Shown here in pieces: positions 10,952 through 59,174 of a DNA stretch of 64,000 bases (position 1 is its first letter; every line of letters starts with the position of its first letter). Location of the stretch: the IMG/VR virus record IMGVR_UViG_3300029448_000016; one strand, written 5' to 3'. Source of the stretch: an uncultured virus (IMG/VR IMGVR_UViG_3300029448_000016) (Duplodnaviria; Heunggongvirae; Uroviricota; Caudoviricetes). The notes under the pieces were generated by a model. That model had not been told where the DNA came from and did no database searches. It worked only from the letters and a program-made list of their open reading frames with translations. The position numbers were made by a program, and so were the translations under genes.

Positions 10952-13705
10952 ATGGCCAGATTTAGTAATGTATTAAAGAGTATGCCTCACAACGCCGTTA
11001 ACAGGAGAGCACAATCTTCTGGTACACAAGGTACACAAGGTATCCAAGGTAAACAAGGTACTACCGGTGGAGGTGGTGGCGGAGGTACTCAAGGAACTCA
11101 AGGTAGACAAGGAACTACTGGTGGTCAAGGAACTCAAGGTAGACAAGGAACTACTGGTGGTCAAGGTACTCAAGGAAGACAAGGAACTACTGGCTCACAA
11201 GGAACTCAAGGTAGACAAGGAACTACTGGTGGACAAGGTACACAAGGTAGACAAGGAACTACAGGTAGTCAAGGTACACAAGGAACTACTGGCGCACAAG
11301 GAACACAGGGTAGACAAGGTACACAAGGTATTCAAGGCAAACAAGGTACTACAGGTAGTCAAGGAACTCAAGGAAGACAAGGAACAACTGGTTCTCAAGG
11401 TACACAGGGTAGACAAGGTACACAAGGTATTCAAGGTAAACAAGGAACTACAGGTAGTCAAGGTACACAAGGAACTACTGGCGCACAAGGAACACAAGGG
11501 CGTCAAGGTACACAAGGTAAACAAGGGACATTAGGTCTTTTTGGTGGAAACAGTATTGAATTTAATTATAGTAGTTTTGATATTACCGCTGGTTCTCCGG
11601 GACAAACTAATTTTGGATTTAATATTGCATTACCCGGTGGTGGAGGTGTGCCTAATTACGGTTTAATTTCTAAAGTAGGAATATCTGATTTTGATATTAA
11701 TACTACTGACGTCAGTGATTGGGTGGACTCACTCGATGATGGTACTGGTGCAGTAAGAGGACATTTAAGAATTTTTAGAACTAACGACTCAGATGAATTC
11801 GTTACTTTTAATATTACAGGAGCAAATGTTGCTGGTGGAGCAGGGACTACAGCTTATGAAGAAGTACAAGTACAGTTTGTTGATAGTAATGGTACTTTTA
11901 GTAATGGTGATGATTGTGTTATTAGTTTTGTACAAGCTGGAGCTCAGGGCACACAAGGTGTCCAAGGTAAACAGGGTACAACTGGTGGAGGAGGCGGTGG
12001 TGGTTCTCAAGGAACACAAGGTAGACAAGGAACACAAGGAACTACAGGAGCGCAAGGTACACAAGGAACTACAGGAGCTCAAGGTATTCAGGGTAAACAA
12101 GGTGTTCAAGGAGTTCAAGGAAAACAAGGAACACAAGGAACTACAGGAGCGCAAGGTACACAAGGAACTACAGGAGCTCAAGGTATTCAGGGTAAACAAG
12201 GAATACAAGGTACAACTGGTGCAGCTTCTACAGTAGCTGGTCCTCAAGGAACTCAAGGAACTACAGGAGCCCAAGGCATTCAGGGTAAACAAGGAATACA
12301 AGGAAAACAAGGTACACAAGGTAGACAAGGTACTACTGGAGAGGATTCCACAGTGGTTGGTCCTCAAGGTACACAAGGTAGACAAGGTACTACTGGTGCT
12401 ACAGGTTCTCAAGGAACCCAAGGAATACAAGGTAAACAAGGTACTCAGGGTATACAAGGTAAACAAGGTATTCAAGGTAATACTGGTGGCGGTGGTGGAG
12501 GAGGTACTCAAGGTACTCAAGGTCGTCAAGGAACACAAGGAACTACAGGAGCGCAAGGTACACAAGGAACTACAGGAGCACAAGGTATTCAGGGTAAACA
12601 AGGAATACAAGGTACAACTGGTGCAGATTCTACAGTAGCTGGTCCTCAAGGAACTCAAGGCCGTCAAGGTGTACAAGGAAAACAAGGTACTCAAGGTACA
12701 CAAGGAATACAAGGTAAACAAGGAACACAAGGTAGACAAGGAGTTACTGGTGCAGATTCTACAGTAGTTGGTCCTCAAGGTACTCAGGGTATACAAGGTA
12801 AACAAGGTATTCAAGGTAATACTGGTGGCGGTGGTGGAGGAGGTTCACAAGGAACTCAAGGCCGTCAAGGTGTACAAGGAAAACAAGGTAAACAAGGAAC
12901 ACAAGGAACTACAGGTTTACAAGGAACACAAGGTAGACAAGGAGTTACTGGTGCAGATTCTACTGTTCCGGGACCAGTTGGTAATCAGGGAATTCAAGGT
13001 AAACAAGGACGTGTAGGTGACCAAGGTACACAAGGAAGACAAGGTACTCAGGGTATACAAGGTAAACAAGGTATTCAAGGTAATACTGGTGGCGGTGGTG
13101 GAGGAGGTTCTCAAGGAACTCAAGGCCGTCAAGGTACTACTGGTTCACAAGGTACACAAGGTAGACAAGGAGTTACTGGTGCAGATTCTACTGTTCCGGG
13201 ACCAGTTGGTAATCAGGGAATTCAAGGTAAACAAGGACGTGTAGGTGACCAAGGTACACAAGGAAGACAAGGTACACAAGGTAGACAGGGTGTACAAGGA
13301 AAACAAGGTTCATCCGGTGGAGGAGGCGGTGGTGGTTCTCAAGGAACTCAAGGCCGCCAAGGTGTACAAGGTAAACAGGGAACTACAGGAAGTACTGGTT
13401 CAGGTGGTTCTACAGGAAGTCAAGGTACACAAGGAAAACAAGGTACGACTGGTACTGGTAACCAAGGTACACAAGGAAAACAAGGACAAACTGGTGCAAC
13501 TGGTGGTGGTGGTGGTGGTGGAGGAACTACTATTTCACACGTAGGTGCAGGTGGTTCGGCTTTATTTGGTGCAGCTCCAGTAACTTATGTACCTTCTGGT
13601 GCTCCAGTAGAAATGTATGATATGGCAACCGTAGGAGTACCAAATGGATATTTAACCGCGTCTGTAGGAGGAGCAACGCGTGCTTGGCCATCTTGGTCAC
13701 CATAA
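10952..13705 (+). CDS. Collagen-like (Gly-X-Gln) fibre protein with an internal globular domain
   Basis: Long GTQ/GRQ/GKQ/GIQ triplet runs, poly-Gly hinges and a non-repetitive domain at about aa 195-330. Confidence 0.85.
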   Translation: MARFSNVLKSMPHNAVNRRAQSSGTQGTQGIQGKQGTTGGGGGGGTQGTQGRQGTTGGQGTQGRQGTTGGQGTQGRQGTTGSQGTQGRQGTTGGQGTQGRQGTTGSQGTQGTTGAQGTQGRQGTQGIQGKQGTTGSQGTQGRQGTTGSQGTQGRQGTQGIQGKQGTTGSQGTQGTTGAQGTQGRQGTQGKQGTLGLFGGNSIEFNYSSFDITAGSPGQTNFGFNIALPGGGGVPNYGLISKVGISDFDINTTDVSDWVDSLDDGTGAVRGHLRIFRTNDSDEFVTFNITGANVAGGAGTTAYEEVQVQFVDSNGTFSNGDDCVISFVQAGAQGTQGVQGKQGTTGGGGGGGSQGTQGRQGTQGTTGAQGTQGTTGAQGIQGKQGVQGVQGKQGTQGTTGAQGTQGTTGAQGIQGKQGIQGTTGAASTVAGPQGTQGTTGAQGIQGKQGIQGKQGTQGRQGTTGEDSTVVGPQGTQGRQGTTGATGSQGTQGIQGKQGTQGIQGKQGIQGNTGGGGGGGTQGTQGRQGTQGTTGAQGTQGTTGAQGIQGKQGIQGTTGADSTVAGPQGTQGRQGVQGKQGTQGTQGIQGKQGTQGRQGVTGADSTVVGPQGTQGIQGKQGIQGNTGGGGGGGSQGTQGRQGVQGKQGKQGTQGTTGLQGTQGRQGVTGADSTVPGPVGNQGIQGKQGRVGDQGTQGRQGTQGIQGKQGIQGNTGGGGGGGSQGTQGRQGTTGSQGTQGRQGVTGADSTVPGPVGNQGIQGKQGRVGDQGTQGRQGTQGRQGVQGKQGSSGGGGGGGSQGTQGRQGVQGKQGTTGSTGSGGSTGSQGTQGKQGTTGTGNQGTQGKQGQTGATGGGGGGGGTTISHVGAGGSALFGAAPVTYVPSGAPVEMYDMATVGVPNGYLTASVGGATRAWPSWSP

Positions 13706-55503: not shown

Positions 55504-55578
55504 TTCAGCTTCCCTATATTAACTATATTAAGATATAGATTAGTTATGCTATAGTATTGCTATAAGTAAAGAGACTAA

Positions 55579-55656
55579 TAGAGCATGCTTAGTTTAGCAC
55601 TCTTATGTCTTAGTATAGCATGGTTAGTAGAGCATGTTTAGTAGAGCATTCTTAAT
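55579..55656 (+). repeat. 14-bp periodic TAGAGCATGYTTAG repeats
   Basis: Three tandem copies at 55614-55655 plus one at 55579. Confidence 0.7.
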
Positions 55657-55960
55657 ATAGGCTTCTTAATTACTTACTCTACTTTGTCGCATGAACACAT
55701 TTCATCGCGAACTAAGAACTTAAACTGGTTTTAGTTTGGGTTTTAAGCCCTACTAAGCACTTTTATTTTCTCATTGGGGCCTACGGTTGTGCTCAGTGGA
55801 GCCCTGAGCCCGACTGAGACAGTTTCTCACTGTGCTTTACGGACCTCCCCTGTTTCTTTATAGAGCCAACTGAGCAATGTTTTCTCACCTCGCCTTACCG
55901 AGCTTTCTCACGAAGGTTTAAAGCTCAACTGAGAGCCCACGAGCTGAGTAGAGCGAAGAA

Positions 55961-55980
55961 GTTTCACTCGAGTGGAAAAA
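55961..55980. promoter_or_regulatory. Palindrome copy 5 without an adjacent TATA box
   Basis: GTTTCACTCGAGTGGAAAAA. Confidence 0.6.
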
Positions 55981-55999
55981 TAAAATTTATAAAAAATAA

Positions 56000-56220
56000 T
56001 AGGATGAGTAGGAGGATTTATTGTATACCTCCAAAGGGTTTATGCCACTACAAAGTAGAACCCTTACCAGCTTTGCATCCCTCCAGCAGTCGCTTCTCGG
56101 TTTGCGCAGTTCTGTGCCTTAGTCCGTGGCGGACTTGTTCGGCCATACTCGATTACGGAAGAGCTACTTCCATAAATATAAGGTGGGTAGTTGTTCGAGA
56201 TACCCAGCTCGATTACTGAT
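56000..56220 (-). ncRNA. Candidate structured RNA (cassette 4 trailer)
   Basis: At least five short helices and an internal duplicated motif. Confidence 0.35.
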
Positions 56221-56223
56221 TGC

Positions 56224-56556
56224 CTATTTAATTAGACCTGCCTTTTTCATAGCTTTCTTCAAATCAGCTTCTGACATCTTACCTGATGCAAGAGCAGCAA
56301 CAACAGAGTCCACTGAAGGAGCTTTGCCAGTTACTTTTCTTTGTGATTGAAGTTCATGTGTGCGTGATGCAACCATAGATGCAGTTTTATCATTTGCAGA
56401 TATTACATCGCAAATGGCAACGAGTGCATCATACTTTACACCAGTAGGATATCTTTCGGAAGTTCCTACTTTTTCTATTCCTAGTGAGTCCAATAAAGAA
56501 CTCACGAGCTTTTCATCCTTTGGTGCCCAAAGGTAATCCATCTTGGCCTTAGTCAT
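56224..56556 (-). CDS. Hypothetical protein (leaderless)
   Basis: Track ORF; AAGCTTAAATAG promoter at 56576-56587. Confidence 0.7.
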   Translation of the reverse strand: MTKAKMDYLWAPKDEKLVSSLLDSLGIEKVGTSERYPTGVKYDALVAICDVISANDKTASMVASRTHELQSQRKVTGKAPSVDSVVAALASGKMSEADLKKAMKKAGLIK

Positions 56557-56585
56557 AATATACCATCCGCTAGTGCTATTTAAGC

Positions 56586-56822
56586 TTATCCCCTGCTGAT
56601 GACTTGACGAAGTTCGTATTGCTCAAAGACGTCTGGATTAGATAATCTCACAGAGTCTGCAATTTCTTGATGGCTTCCTCGGCTACCAGTGCCAACCGGA
56701 ATCATTTCTTTATACATTCCATACTTACCGTATGGGGTAGTGCCCACTTCTACGAAGAAGTCGACTTCTTTCTCACTGCGACCCTTCCATGGAAGAGACG
56801 TCTTGGTCTGAATTCTGTTCAT
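56586..56822 (-). CDS. Hypothetical protein (leaderless)
   Basis: Track ORF; promoter at 56843-56875. Confidence 0.7.
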   Translation of the reverse strand: MNRIQTKTSLPWKGRSEKEVDFFVEVGTTPYGKYGMYKEMIPVGTGSRGSHQEIADSVRLSNPDVFEQYELRQVISRG

Positions 56823-56842
56823 GTATAACCAAGGGAGGGGGT

Positions 56843-56875
56843 CTATATAAAGGTTTTTTCACACGAGTGGAAAAA
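56843..56875 (-). promoter_or_regulatory. Palindrome + BRE-TATA promoter repeat, copy 4
   Basis: TTTTCCACTCGTGTGAAAAAACCTTTATATAG. Confidence 0.85.
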
Positions 56876-56884
56876 GATGCAACT

Positions 56885-57290
56885 TCACCCAAGGCTCTAA
56901 TTAGAATTTAAAGCCTACCTTGGGGAGCGGTTGCCTGAGGGCGCGACAATCTTCATAGGTAGCGCCACACGTGGGGTGACCTGTCGCCAGTCAAAAGCCG
57001 AAGCTTCACGAAAGGCGAACACAAACAGAACAGGTGTGATGCAGCATAGCGAATACGAGAAGACATATAACAGGGACAAAGTGATTCAAAGGTGATACAT
57101 AATGTTAGCTACACGTCTTTAATCAACTAAGATGGCCATAGACCGGCAAGGGATTGGTCAGCACTGTTCAGCTAATGTTTGTTATTTTGTCTTTCGTATT
57201 TGGCGTATGGTCGATTTTGTTTCTTTGTCAGGTCACGGTGTTACAGCTGATAACTGTAAGTGAGCGGGGGTAATTTGGGCTCCCCGCTCT
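56885..57290 (-). ncRNA. Candidate ~410-nt structured ncRNA with its own promoter
   Basis: TATA at 57311-57323 with the same TTGGTTATAC initiator context as neighbouring genes but no ATG; nested long-range helices; C(UUCG)G hairpin. Confidence 0.55.
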
Positions 57291-57314
57291 GTATAACCAA
57301 TAGGGTATGCCTAT

Positions 57315-57584
57315 TTAAGCTTTGCCCCTTACAAAGTCAATTACTTCATTTGGGACTTTAGTTCCATATTTTTTAATCTCAGAGACATAGACATCACCAA
57401 GTTCGAATTCTCCGTAAGTGAAATTACTTTTCACCGCACAGAACCAACGAGCGTGAGCGTTCTTTGCTTCGTTTTCTTCGTTTTGGTATTTCTTTAATAC
57501 TCTCCATTCAAAGCCATTAGCTCCAGTCCAGACCTCGTATGGGTCGTCAGCACTACGGGATTTACCGCACATGTTTTTAGTCAT
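57315..57584 (-). CDS. Conserved phage protein (EFELGDVY motif, DUF2958-like)
   Basis: Track ORF; leaderless behind repeat copy 3. Confidence 0.7.
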   Translation of the reverse strand: MTKNMCGKSRSADDPYEVWTGANGFEWRVLKKYQNEENEAKNAHARWFCAVKSNFTYGEFELGDVYVSEIKKYGTKVPNEVIDFVRGKA

Positions 57585-57604
57585 ACAATACCAAGTGTGG
57601 GGGT

Positions 57605-57636
57605 CTATATAAAGGTTTTTTCACATGAGTGGAAAA
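57605..57636 (-). promoter_or_regulatory. Palindrome + BRE-TATA promoter repeat, copy 3
   Basis: TTTTCCACTCATGTGAAAAAACCTTTATATAG. Confidence 0.85.
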
Positions 57637-57639
57637 GGC

Positions 57640-57661
57640 GGGGGAGAGGCTCTACTCCCCC
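57640..57661 (-). terminator. GC-rich hairpin before the palindrome T-run
   Basis: GGGGGAG-N8-CTCCCCC. Confidence 0.45.
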
Positions 57662-57686
57662 TGAGGTGTCCGAAAACTTGCGAAAA

Positions 57687-57761
57687 CTATTTGCTAGCCT
57701 TTTTGATAATCTTATTTGTTTTCTTTTTCCAACTGCGTTCCAATGGTTTATCGTAGCTCAT
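57687..57761 (-). CDS. Basic micropeptide (24 aa)
   Basis: Hand-translated MSYDKPLERSWKKKTNKIIKKASK; ATGA coupled. Confidence 0.4.
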   Translation of the reverse strand: MSYDKPLERSWKKKTNKIIKKASK

Positions 57762-57874
57762 TGGTGACACCCGCAGCAAGGTGCGTCTTCACACCCGCAG
57801 AGAACAATGTAGTCCCCTGCTTCACTTATACCAGAGATGACCATGTCATCTAAAATATCCAAGATGCTCTTCAT
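57758..57874 (-). CDS. Cys-rich micro-protein with CEDAPCCGC motif (38 aa)
   Basis: Hand-translated; ATGA coupled at both ends. Confidence 0.6.
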   Translation of the reverse strand: MKSILDILDDMVISGISEAGDYIVLCGCEDAPCCGCHQ

Positions 57875-58071
57875 TCCCACACCCTCACGTTATTGTGGTG
57901 GTCTGTCAAGGGAATGTTAGCTGGGTCTTCCTTGCGTGGGTCGTCTGTTAGTCCCATGTCAATTGCTTTTAGCTGGTCTAGTAAACCAGAGTCAACTAAG
58001 TTTTTGGTTTGGGTTCTTCGGGCGGCTTTGCGGAAACGGAAGTCGTTTCTCATGTCCTGTATTTTACTCAT
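57871..58071 (-). CDS. Hypothetical protein (leaderless)
   Basis: Track ORF; promoter at 58091-58104. Confidence 0.65.
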   Translation of the reverse strand: MSKIQDMRNDFRFRKAARRTQTKNLVDSGLLDQLKAIDMGLTDDPRKEDPANIPLTDHHNNVRVWE

Positions 58072-58107
58072 ATTATACCATTGAGTGTCCCTATATAAGG
58101 GTTTCTC

Positions 58108-58218
58108 TCAGTCCCCCGTCCAGAAGGTCGCAAACATTTCTGTATCGCAATCCTCACACAGTCCACCGAATAATTCGATATCTTCCAAGCCACAGTCCTG
58201 ACACGTTTGATTAGTCAT
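58108..58218 (-). CDS. Zn-finger micro-protein MTNQTCQDCG...LCEDCD (36 aa)
   Basis: Hand-translated; leaderless behind repeat copy 2. Confidence 0.65.
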   Translation of the reverse strand: MTNQTCQDCGLEDIELFGGLCEDCDTEMFATFWTGD

Positions 58219-58238
58219 ACAATACCAAGAACACTACC

Positions 58239-58270
58239 CTATATAAAGGTTTTTTCACTTGAGTGGAAAA
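58239..58270 (-). promoter_or_regulatory. Palindrome + BRE-TATA promoter repeat, copy 2
   Basis: TTTTCCACTCAAGTGAAAAAACCTTTATATAG. Confidence 0.85.
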
Positions 58271-58520
58271 GCTGGCGCCCCTCCTAAGAGGGGGTAACCT
58301 GCGCCCAGCTGTCCTACCTCAATGGGCTGGCTCACTGGGCTGAAGATGCGTCGCTACGTTTAACGCTCGGGCGGACTTATGCCGTAGGCCCTTCGCCATC
58401 TCTTGTCAGGCGTCTTCTCTTGTCTTTACCAGTTTATTAGACTGTTGTCCTCTCACCGCTTCCAAACGGGGCGCCTACTCCTTGGGCCACCTATTTACAG
58501 AGAGCAAAGACTCATGGAAC
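58271..58520 (-). ncRNA. Candidate GC-rich structured RNA (cassette 1 trailer)
   Basis: Much higher GC than the flanks; no ORF of 60 aa or more; several helices. Confidence 0.4.
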
Positions 58521-58679
58521 TTAACCCCAGTATCCCGACGCTACACAGAACTTGTGCGTGTTGAATCTTGGGTTGTGTTTTACCATTTCACCAGACATAG
58601 CGAGTATTAGGTCCTCGCTTGCGTCATTGTCTTTTAGTATTTTTGCGATTGCTTCAAAGTGTTTTCTTGTCATAGTCAT
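58521..58679 (-). CDS. Conserved small phage protein (MTRKHF..IA...NPRF type, 52 aa)
   Basis: Hand-translated; promoter at 58699-58711. Confidence 0.7.
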   Translation of the reverse strand: MTMTRKHFEAIAKILKDNDASEDLILAMSGEMVKHNPRFNTHKFCVASGYWG

Positions 58680-58709
58680 AATATACCATAGAGTGTGCCT
58701 ATATAAGGT

Positions 58710-58856
58710 TTACGCTCTTCTCCTCCAGCGCAACATTCTCAGCAACATGCCCTGAGTTTTTATAGGTTGTTTATAAAATTCCTCAAATGTTTGTTTGCCG
58801 CCTAATTCGACGTAGTCGTGCCAGTTGTGGATTGTTTGTATTTCGTATTTGTCCAT
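58710..58856 (-). CDS. Hypothetical protein (48 aa, leaderless)
   Basis: Start moved to 58856 because the longer track start lies inside the promoter repeat. Confidence 0.6.
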   Translation of the reverse strand: MDKYEIQTIHNWHDYVELGGKQTFEEFYKQPIKTQGMLLRMLRWRRRA

Positions 58857-58875
58857 ATTATACCAACGGGTGTGC

Positions 58876-58907
58876 CTATATAAAGGTTTTTTCACACGAG
58901 TGGAAAA
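58876..58907 (-). promoter_or_regulatory. Palindrome + BRE-TATA promoter repeat, copy 1
   Basis: TTTTCCACTCGTGTGAAAAAACCTTTATATAG. Confidence 0.85.
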
Positions 58908-58910
58908 GTC

Positions 58911-59075
58911 CTACTTGAGCTGGCTTCTTTTGAAACCAGCCCACACGTGACCCTTATCCCAAATGTATTTACTACCACCTGTAGCAGGGTCATAGACTAA
59001 CCAATAGTTATTACCTCTGGCGTCTGTTCCTTTATTGATTATTTTATATCCGTCTTTGGTGTTTCTTTTTCTCAT
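58911..59075 (-). CDS. Small hypothetical protein (54 aa, leaderless)
   Basis: Hand-translated MRKRNTKDGYKIINKG...; promoter at 59096-59110. Confidence 0.65.
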   Translation of the reverse strand: MRKRNTKDGYKIINKGTDARGNNYWLVYDPATGGSKYIWDKGHVWAGFKRSQLK

Positions 59076-59104
59076 GAATTACCAATAGGGAATCCCTATA
59101 TAAA

Positions 59105-59174
59105 GCTTTCTCACCTAAGCGCTTTCTCACCTAGGCTGCTTTCTCACCCCACGCGGGTTTCTCACCCACGCAGG
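59105..59174. repeat. Four direct TTTCTCACC repeats, 16-18 bp period
   Basis: Copies start near 59107, 59123, 59140 and 59158. Confidence 0.8.

Follow-up and report, generated by a model that had tools for sequence, protein, structure and literature searches.

What kind of gene, if any, lies behind a promoter in the early region of a tailed virus at a position where the neighbouring units carry an ATG and the expected start reads AGA? The locus that raises this question is on the minus strand of a 64,000-nt stretch of DNA from an uncultured marine virus (the whole of this stretch is referred to below as the window). A sequence-only reading had proposed that positions 56885-57290 hold a promoter-driven, structured non-coding RNA of ~410 nt in a gene slot of a cassette, and this core proposal is borne out by covariation, by the absence of a conserved ORF, by synteny, by the lack of any matching Rfam family and by RNA-library contigs of two studies that cover the region. 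We conclude that an uncultured marine tailed dsDNA virus has, on the minus strand at 56871-57290, a genuine gene for a structured non-coding RNA not described before. The predicted transcript (56871-57290), which is delimited by nhmmer matches, covariation, the absence of a conserved ORF and RNA-library contigs at 56924-57254, measures ~420 nt in the virus under study and ~320-440 nt in its relatives.

The window covers the greater part of a tailed dsDNA virus genome, which encodes a large terminase (T4-type), a portal, an HK97-type capsid protein and a tape-measure-like protein, together with a family B DNA polymerase, a class II ribonucleotide reductase, a CobS/CobT-like pair, phytoene synthase, MazG, Hsp20, a resolvase and sugar-modifying enzymes. 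Between 55.4 and 59.2 kb its minus strand is divided into short units, each headed by a repeated TATA-type box. With 17 occurrences in the window, YTTWTATAG exceeds the 6.3 expected, and none of 100 shuffles reached that number; 7 of the 17 sites lie on the minus strand within 56843-59104. Eight ORFs in 56554-59099 follow the pattern TTWWATAG, 19-20 nt, ATG (ATG at 56556, 56822, 57584, 58071, 58218, 58679, 58866 and 59075, with the distance counted from ATAG), and the RNA has the same spacing, as a sequence-pattern match only. None of these eight early ORFs has a Shine-Dalgarno motif before its ATG; AGGAG- or GGTGA-type motifs are present at the late genes. Neither sigma-70-type promoters (11 versus 12.2 expected) nor hairpin terminators (3 versus 4.2 expected) are enriched in the window.

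A TATA box at a fixed distance from leaderless starts, with T-runs at the ends of units, is the archaeal pattern, and because this virus displays the same combination we consider it likely that its host is archaeal. The sequence-only reading had spoken of archaeal tailed viruses; the archaeal assignment derives from promoter architecture alone. Searches of Poseidoniales genomes with a model of the RNA core (0 of 151 genomes) and with the capsid protein (0 of 401) were run without a positive control and are uninformative on the host, and the capsid protein had no match in an annotated phage collection. The closest relatives of the polymerase and terminase are just 20-26% identical and come from bacterial and haloarchaeal viruses alike, so that these proteins name no host. 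Relatives of the capsid protein numbered at least 928 among 8000 candidates scored, which places the virus in a widespread uncultured marine group.

The promoter of the RNA gene is a TATA/BRE-like box, AAAGCTTAAATAG, the reverse complement of 57311-57323, and it overlaps the stop codon of an upstream 89-aa ORF. It is kept in 11 sequences (alignment A2) despite the fact that the overlapping ORF varies in end frame and in length (77-82 or 89 aa), which points to selection on the box as a DNA motif. The box is an 89% copy of the one ahead of the leaderless ORF 56224-56556 (repeat family D17). A 20-nt spacer (57291-57310) separates it from the predicted start and holds a near-palindrome, TAGG-N6-CCTA, which takes the form ATAGGG-N3-CCCTAT in relatives and at the 59075 promoter, as well as the initiator context TTGGTTATAC. 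This context precedes AGA at 57290-57288 and recurs ahead of the ATG at 56822; the bases from 57290 read AGAGCGGGG at the place where other units of the region carry ATG. For the promoter and the start context the sequence-only reading had both coordinates and letters right. We infer that the host polymerase would begin transcription at ~57290 from the RNA's own TATA-type promoter.

At the other end, a run of five Ts (56871-56875), with a T-run at the same place in homologues, is the inferred site at which transcription would stop. It is followed by the next unit (56823-56870), a repeated hairpin with the TATA promoter TTTTCCACTCGTGTGAAAAAACCTTTATATAG of the leaderless 78-aa ORF 56586-56822. 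This element belongs to repeat family D1, which has 4 copies, and it sits between the RNA and the downstream gene in those A2 loci that reach that far. Between the stop of the upstream ORF and the RNA there is neither a terminator nor a T-run, and read-through into the RNA from the promoter of the upstream ORF is possible.

The RNA region is not a protein gene. The longest ORF in 56885-57290 is 54 aa on either strand, in keeping with the earlier statement that no ORF of at least 60 aa is present. Across 39 aligned sequences no ORF of at least 12 aa, on either strand, has a common end in more than 20; the best-conserved ORF end is found in 20 of the 39 with lengths of 13-43 aa, and 1-nt indels occur within the most conserved blocks of the RNA. 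The interval also falls outside the families of Rfam 15, whose 4227 models include manA, pRNA, 6S, SRP, RNase P, 5S, GOLLD, ROOL, HEARO and OLE. At gathering scores the whole window returned manA alone (56001-56175), a 3-kb stretch searched at E<=10 returned nothing on 56871-57293, and the same threshold applied to 441 nt alone gave just two chance-level plus-strand matches (19.7 and 10.6 bits), while eight related loci at E<=0.1 again returned manA alone. This comparison, suggested alongside the sequence-only reading, thus yielded no family on the RNA even at E<=10. Identity with pRNA was rejected for want of a model match, as was mimicry of 5S, SRP or RNase P RNA, for which short look-alike words were the only resemblance. 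The template RNA of a diversity-generating retroelement was likewise rejected, as a scan of the 36 large ORFs turned up no reverse transcriptase. Within the 64-kb window no second copy, repeat or complementary stretch of the RNA rose above chance (best 17 nt, E 0.33), and a full-text literature search found no report of such an RNA or of RNA-based host takeover in archaeal viruses.

Approximately 65 copies of the RNA were found in marine viral and metagenome contigs. Scanning with patterns derived from conserved blocks identified homologues in 10 further IMG/VR contigs and, in addition, in the nearest record (G001), which is 100% identical, and a relaxed scan gave 28 stretches that resolved into 13 true homologues and 15 chance matches; three of the true homologues came from new viral contigs, all of the same lineage. 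The nhmmer matches fall in 13 distinct viral contigs. Many ocean metagenomes contain the RNA as well, nhmmer confirming 50 of the 52 stretches returned by a pattern scan of metagenomes. Three pattern matches (L028, L057 and L076) were dismissed as chance matches in a GC-rich gene, L076 being the sole stretch from a prokaryote genome (a marine group II MAG). Neither the RNA nor a 14-kb region matched anything in the annotated phage collection. For comparative work we used alignment A4, which consists of 39 distinct sequences and leaves out matches covering <300 model positions (L014, L025, L058, L071 and L072), the contig-end-truncated L066 and exact duplicates.

Three more distant loci were reached by way of relatives of a downstream 110-aa ORF. 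A model of the 175-position inner core of the RNA identifies divergent homologues in two of them, L118 (46 bits) and L111 (27 bits). In the third, L116, the core is absent from the locus, and its slot contains the same promoter and 5' hairpin (P1, described below); beyond them lies an unrelated sequence of ~300 nt, which has a folding z of -2.4 and contains no sense-strand ORF of at least 25 aa.

The RNA is present in one copy per genome within a fixed gene order: the 89-aa ORF, the RNA, the 78-aa ORF and then the 110-aa ORF. The 89-aa ORF lies upstream on the same strand, 4-43 nt away, in 60 of 61 locus rows, the single row that lacks it having a flank of just 53 nt, and the 78-aa ORF lies 47-102 nt downstream in 52 of the 61, the contigs of the other nine ending at or just after the RNA. 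The flanking small proteins matched no Pfam or PHROG family and gave no usable Atlas lead. The RNA core does not follow the sequence type of these proteins: one variant of the upstream protein is common to L116 and L118, yet the RNA is found in L118 alone. Across loci the flanking proteins fall to 57-64% identity, and many unpaired bases of the RNA are invariant in all 39 sequences; these unpaired bases appear to be under purifying selection.

The secondary structure of the RNA is conserved and covarying. RNAalifold, applied to A4, gave 60 consensus pairs, 24 of which show compensatory double changes; the collection of homologues had been suggested with the sequence-only reading, and these compensatory changes support an RNA gene. 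Standard pairs fill 99.9% of 2263 cells (92.0% in shuffles), double changes are seen in 24 pairs, with 156 cells involved (12.5 and 35.4, respectively, in shuffles), and the covariation score is 0.214 (0.068 shuffled); neither the observed double changes nor the observed score was reached in any of 500 shuffles. When the 3' partners were slid by 1-3 columns only 28-46% of cells remained paired and 2-6 pairs had double changes. The shuffle control takes no account of relatedness, and the aligned sequences are mosaics assembled from a few types; more weight therefore belongs to the slid controls and to the fact that hardly any pair is broken.

These cells also fix the strand. Among the wobble cells there are 108 G-U or U-G and no A-C or C-A, from which it follows that the minus strand is the RNA strand, and placing the same structure on the opposite strand lowers the proportion of paired cells to 95.1%. 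The sequence-only reading had based orientation on the promoter and on a UUCG loop; that loop is not conserved, and the wobble count takes its place. Folding energy, which that reading had proposed comparing with shuffles, is modestly better than chance on the minus strand (-116.6 kcal/mol, z -3.21, 0 of 100 shuffles as good), and on the plus strand the fold has -124.5 kcal/mol, z -2.20, with 2 of 100 shuffles as good. By itself folding energy is a modest argument for an RNA gene.

Helix coordinates were taken from a fold constrained by the covarying pairs, and six of the eight helices proposed from the sequence alone were supported. At the 5' end is the hairpin P1 (57262-57289; GAGCGGGG/CCCCGCUC), an exchangeable module in fold and alignment that occurs in at least four sequence versions in A4 and is absent in several members; as originally suggested it pairs 57262-57269 with 57282-57289, and it covaries (GCG/CGC to GUG/CAC). 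The next hairpin, P2 (57240-57259), had been proposed as TTACAG/CTGTAA at 57241-57259. Two of those pairs carry double changes (in 10 and 8 sequences, respectively), yet the proportion of paired cells is just 88% and the UUACAG/CUGUAA register fails in some variants, whereas a shifted register, GUUA/UAAC, is paired in all 39 sequences.

The centre of the RNA is a long stem whose 5' strand (57180-57236) carries one side of helices P3 to P7; the 3' strand of P4-P7 occupies 57021-57072, as judged from pair counts and the constrained fold. The closing helix P3 (57229-57236/56976-56983; GUGACCUG/CAGGUCAC) has its 3' arm, CAGGUCAC, at 56976-56983, where pair counts and the divergent homologues agree that it closes the core. 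This helix, proposed earlier as GTGACCTG, is invariant in the 39 sequences and carries compensatory changes in both divergent homologues, reading GUGACCAG/CUGGUCAC in L118 and GUGACGUG/CAUGUCAC in L111. Helix P4 (57218-57228/57021-57032) seems, in our reading of A4, to have been swapped as a whole complementary strand pair between the two main sequence types. It is followed by P5 (57203-57209/57045-57050), by P6 (57188-57200/57052-57065), also foreseen from the sequence, in which three core pairs covary (in 15, 6 and 6 sequences) and which the energy model lengthens to 13 bp, and by P7 (57180-57185/57067-57072).

The stem leads into a head (57073-57179), a conserved branched region in which invariant columns mark many unpaired bases. 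It contains the hairpin P8 (57115-57143), with double changes in 3 of 4 pairs, and a 3-bp contact (57153-57155/57101-57103) whose central pair covaries, changing from A-U to U-A in 11 of the 39 sequences. A helix TTAGCT (57105-57110/57170-57175) that had been drawn here was not upheld: 69% of its cells are paired, no double change occurs and it does no better than shuffles. The head is much less conserved in L118 and L111, which retain more of the stem, of P9 and of the 3' domain. P9 (56984-57018) is a side hairpin at the stem base, UCGCC...GGCGA capped by AAGC-UUCG-GCUU, in which double changes occur in 9 of 12 pairs and the cells are paired throughout (100%); the stem of the hairpin described earlier covaries accordingly, and its loop is UUCG, AUAU or AAUU.

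The last part of the RNA is an optional 3' domain (56879-56970) made of a variable hairpin (56937-56970) and a conserved hairpin closed by GCAAC...GUUGC (56879-56934). Double changes are seen in 7 of its 15 pairs, and a 3' hairpin placed previously at 56888-56924 has 6 of 10 pairs covarying. The domain is absent in 5 of the 39 sequences, in which the core is followed directly by the T-run. An alternative end-to-end helix, GGGGAGC, was not supported, performing no better than shuffles and lacking one arm in 15 of the 39 sequences. The overall shape had been called rod-like; this holds for the long irregular stem P3-P7 but not for the branched head, the side hairpin or the optional 5' hairpin and 3' domain.

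RNA-library contigs of four runs were compared over 55900-58600. Run X1 (study P1) has difference-free contigs on 56940-57107 and 57088-57254 at a word depth of 35-56, and run X6 (study P3) has contigs on 56924-57117 at a depth of 12-63, one of which runs on into a different 3'-hairpin variant. RNA-library contigs also lie on a 40-aa ORF (57744-57891), on 58276-58424 and on manA (56112-56211). Both flanking ORFs are among the stretches without contig cover in X1 and X6, which we do not count as evidence. From these data we claim only that RNA libraries of two studies contain the sequence of the RNA, since such contigs reveal neither ends nor strand nor level and DNA can be present in an RNA library. 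Contig ends at 56940/56941 in the two studies coincide with borders of the variable modules and are for that reason not read as RNA ends.

The early region harbours other structured RNAs. A manA RNA (RF01745; 62.1 bits) is located at 56001-56175, ~700 nt downstream of the RNA gene, where it forms the 3' end of a unit and not a 5' UTR, and it is present in all eight related loci tested. The manA motif is described in one report as nearly exclusive to marine metagenomes and T4-like cyanophages (PMC2864571). A 255-nt stretch on the minus strand (58268-58522), behind a 52-aa ORF, has compensatory changes in 20 of 50 predicted pairs among nine sequences, has no Rfam match and shows a conserved loop pattern that is found in 17 viral stretches; it is a second undescribed structured RNA of the early region. 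A further candidate, 57634-57872 (z -3.2), was rejected as an RNA because it consists mostly of a 40-aa Cys-rich ORF, one of its 42 pairs covaries and, in our reading of the alignment, its variation falls on third codon positions.

What might the RNA do? Taken as a whole, a new RNA gene that is transcribed from its own promoter and acts in trans is the best explanation, to which we assign a probability of about 60%. As for mechanism, we tentatively favour, at somewhat below even odds, a stable trans-acting RNA that binds a conserved factor of the host or the virus and so works as a decoy or scaffold. The RNA would accumulate early in infection as a stable trans-acting molecule, its long stem and head would present a fixed binding surface to that factor, and the exchangeable 5' hairpin and 3' domain would mainly protect the ends and set the 3' end. 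A trans-acting RNA with a binding surface fits best because of the early-type promoter of its own, the large fixed architecture, the selection on unpaired bases, the exchangeable end modules and the presence in metatranscriptomes. Several observations count against it: part of the RNA may exist as the 3' end of the upstream mRNA, with no terminator in between; the folding z-score is modest at -3.2; manA and 58268-58522 sit at 3' ends and have no promoter of their own; the head is poorly conserved in L118 and L111; and unrelated non-coding sequence fills the slot in L116, a replacement that fits a dispensable or replaceable function.

The first of these observations leads to the alternative that fares best, in which the structure is a cis-acting 3'-end element whose task is solely to stabilise or terminate the early mRNA of the 89-aa ORF upstream. 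Such an arrangement has parallels in the same region, where manA follows ORF 56224-56556 and the covarying 58268-58522 follows ORF 58521-58679, both structured elements behind a reading frame, and where the unit 57634-57872 ends in a GC hairpin and a T-run; the missing T-run between the upstream ORF and the RNA is also in line with it. A conserved promoter box with leaderless-gene spacing directly ahead of the RNA nevertheless counts against this role, 320-440 nt with at least nine conserved helices and dozens of invariant unpaired bases go far beyond the needs of end protection, and the 3' domain can be lost while the core stays. We consider a cis-acting element improbable, though with a real chance of being right.

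The invariant unpaired stretches could alternatively be loops that pair with host or viral RNAs, making the molecule a base-pairing regulator or sponge. One of them, AUCACCU, is similar to the 3' end of 16S rRNA and might pair with the Shine-Dalgarno sequences of messages led by them, which in this virus are those of the late genes, with the early genes being leaderless. No complementarity above chance was detected in the window, however, AUCACCU is lost in the divergent homologue L118 (for which reason an anti-Shine-Dalgarno mimic was rejected) and usual antisense regulators are much smaller and less structured; base pairing as the function is unlikely. We give an equally slim, if not slimmer, chance to a ribozyme that would process itself or act on a different substrate. 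In its favour are the size of the RNA, its multi-helix junctions and the invariant nucleotides found there, all typical of catalytic or ligand-binding RNAs; against it stand the absence of any Rfam ribozyme family even at E<=10, the strong variation of the head in divergent members and the lack of conspicuous joints or cleavage-like ends in contigs, which could hardly reveal such features.

It is very unlikely that the RNA is a leader or riboswitch of the downstream 78-aa ORF with regulated termination at the T-run. The RNA does lie upstream of that ORF on the same strand and does end in a T-run, but in the A2 loci reaching that far a complete, strongly conserved promoter of the repeated type intervenes, the ORF is leaderless, and variants without the 3' domain keep the same arrangement; with the T-run and a full repeated promoter between the RNA and ORF 56586-56822, a riboswitch or cis-regulatory leader was rejected. 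That there is no RNA gene here, and that the interval is a decayed protein gene (other cassettes hold a small ORF in this slot) or an element that acts as DNA, for example an origin or a packaging site, has a next to negligible chance given the strand-specific excess of G-U over A-C cells, the compensatory changes, the lack of a conserved frame and the RNA-library contigs covering the region.

Returning to the trans-acting RNA, a wider proposal can be made, namely that it is the first large structured non-coding RNA of archaeal tailed viruses and part of an early module of three RNAs (this RNA, 58268-58522 and manA) for host takeover, in which it would serve as an RNP decoy or ribozyme against a conserved host machine. 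This proposal is speculative and on balance doubtful. Were it true, manA-type RNAs would work in archaeal virus infection, beyond bacteria and cyanophages, and an archaeal host would by itself open the question of RNA-based host takeover in archaeal viruses. Whatever its function, the RNA represents a new family of structured RNAs in abundant marine viruses. Structured RNAs of >300 nt with many conserved helices are rare, and the known ones tend to unusual biochemistry. With its sequence, 39 natural variants, a helix map and natural deletion variants, the RNA is a defined object for further work.

How does it compare with known systems? The manA RNA is also a conserved structured RNA of marine viruses and metagenomes whose function is unproven. 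It is shorter (~175 nt against ~420 nt) and, unlike the new RNA with its promoter box, is without a promoter of its own here; its model gives no match to the new RNA, and no shared sequence was seen. The phi29-type pRNA is likewise a promoter-driven structured RNA of a tailed dsDNA virus with a family B DNA polymerase; the new RNA is more than twice its size, does not match its model and belongs to a virus with a T4-type large terminase. The 6S RNA and adenovirus VA RNA, which are abundant, stable, highly base-paired, protein-binding and transcribed from their own promoters, offer an analogy of mechanism only, with no sequence or structural homology to the new RNA. The RNA also resembles GOLLD, ROOL, HEARO, OLE and raiA, which share a length of >300 nt, many conserved helices and invariant junction bases, and which were found by comparative analysis, had no known function at discovery and are in some cases carried by phages. 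No Rfam model of these RNAs matches the new one, which differs from GOLLD-type RNAs in being confined to one lineage of marine viruses, in its TATA-type promoter and in its exchangeable end modules.

Comparison with a related locus that lacks the core of the main structured non-coding RNA gene (56871-57290, minus strand) suggests that the slot which this gene occupies, between ORFs of 89 and 78 aa, is a site where whole RNA cores are swapped. At this locus (L116, 2250-2640, plus strand) the same two ORFs flank a different content: the promoter box and 5' hairpin of the main RNA are kept, and are followed by approximately 300 nt of non-coding sequence that is unrelated to it, contains no sense-strand ORF of at least 25 aa, and gives a folding z-score of -2.4 against shuffles.

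A second structured RNA that has not previously been described was found on the minus strand at 58268-58522, behind a 52-aa ORF (58521-58679), and was matched by no family in Rfam. Compensatory changes were observed in 20 of its 50 predicted pairs (n = 9 sequences), its conserved loop pattern is present in 17 viral stretches, and part of it (58276-58424) is covered by RNA-library contigs; its folding z-score is only -0.57. The interval 57634-57872 was also considered as a further RNA and rejected, since only 1 of its 42 predicted pairs covaries and most of it is accounted for by a GC hairpin, a T-run and a 40-aa Cys-rich ORF (57758-57880, minus strand). The start codon of this ORF overlaps the stop codon of ORF 57871-58071 as ATGA.

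Several repeats were found in the early region. A 56-nt unit (families D1 and D5) recurs at 56823-56874, 57585-57636, 58219-58270 and 58856-58907, and consists of a bulged hairpin, TTTTCCAC-N4-GTGAAAAAA, and a TATA box; the hairpin may be a stop signal of the preceding unit or an operator. Four tandem GCTTTCTCACC-like 16-mers lie at 59105-59171, and resembling TTTCTCAC words are found at 55820-55916, downstream of a manA RNA (families D7, D9 and D20); these repeats may bind protein. Overlapping direct repeats of 14-nt period, TAGTAGAGCATGnT (family D3), occupy an ORF-free stretch at 55576-55668.

Outside this region, a 917-aa protein of the structural module (10952-13705, plus strand) matches Pfam Collagen (E 2.5e-66) and includes long runs of collagen triple-helix repeats.

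The manA RNA itself (56001-56175, minus strand) matches the full-length RF01745 model at 62.1 bits, and was present in all 8 related loci tested. The early genes of the virus carrying it are leaderless and TATA-type. On the minus strand this RNA comes after an ORF (56224-56556), and a T-rich stop and the next promoter hairpin lie beyond it; we therefore assign it a 3'-terminal position and not one within a 5' UTR.
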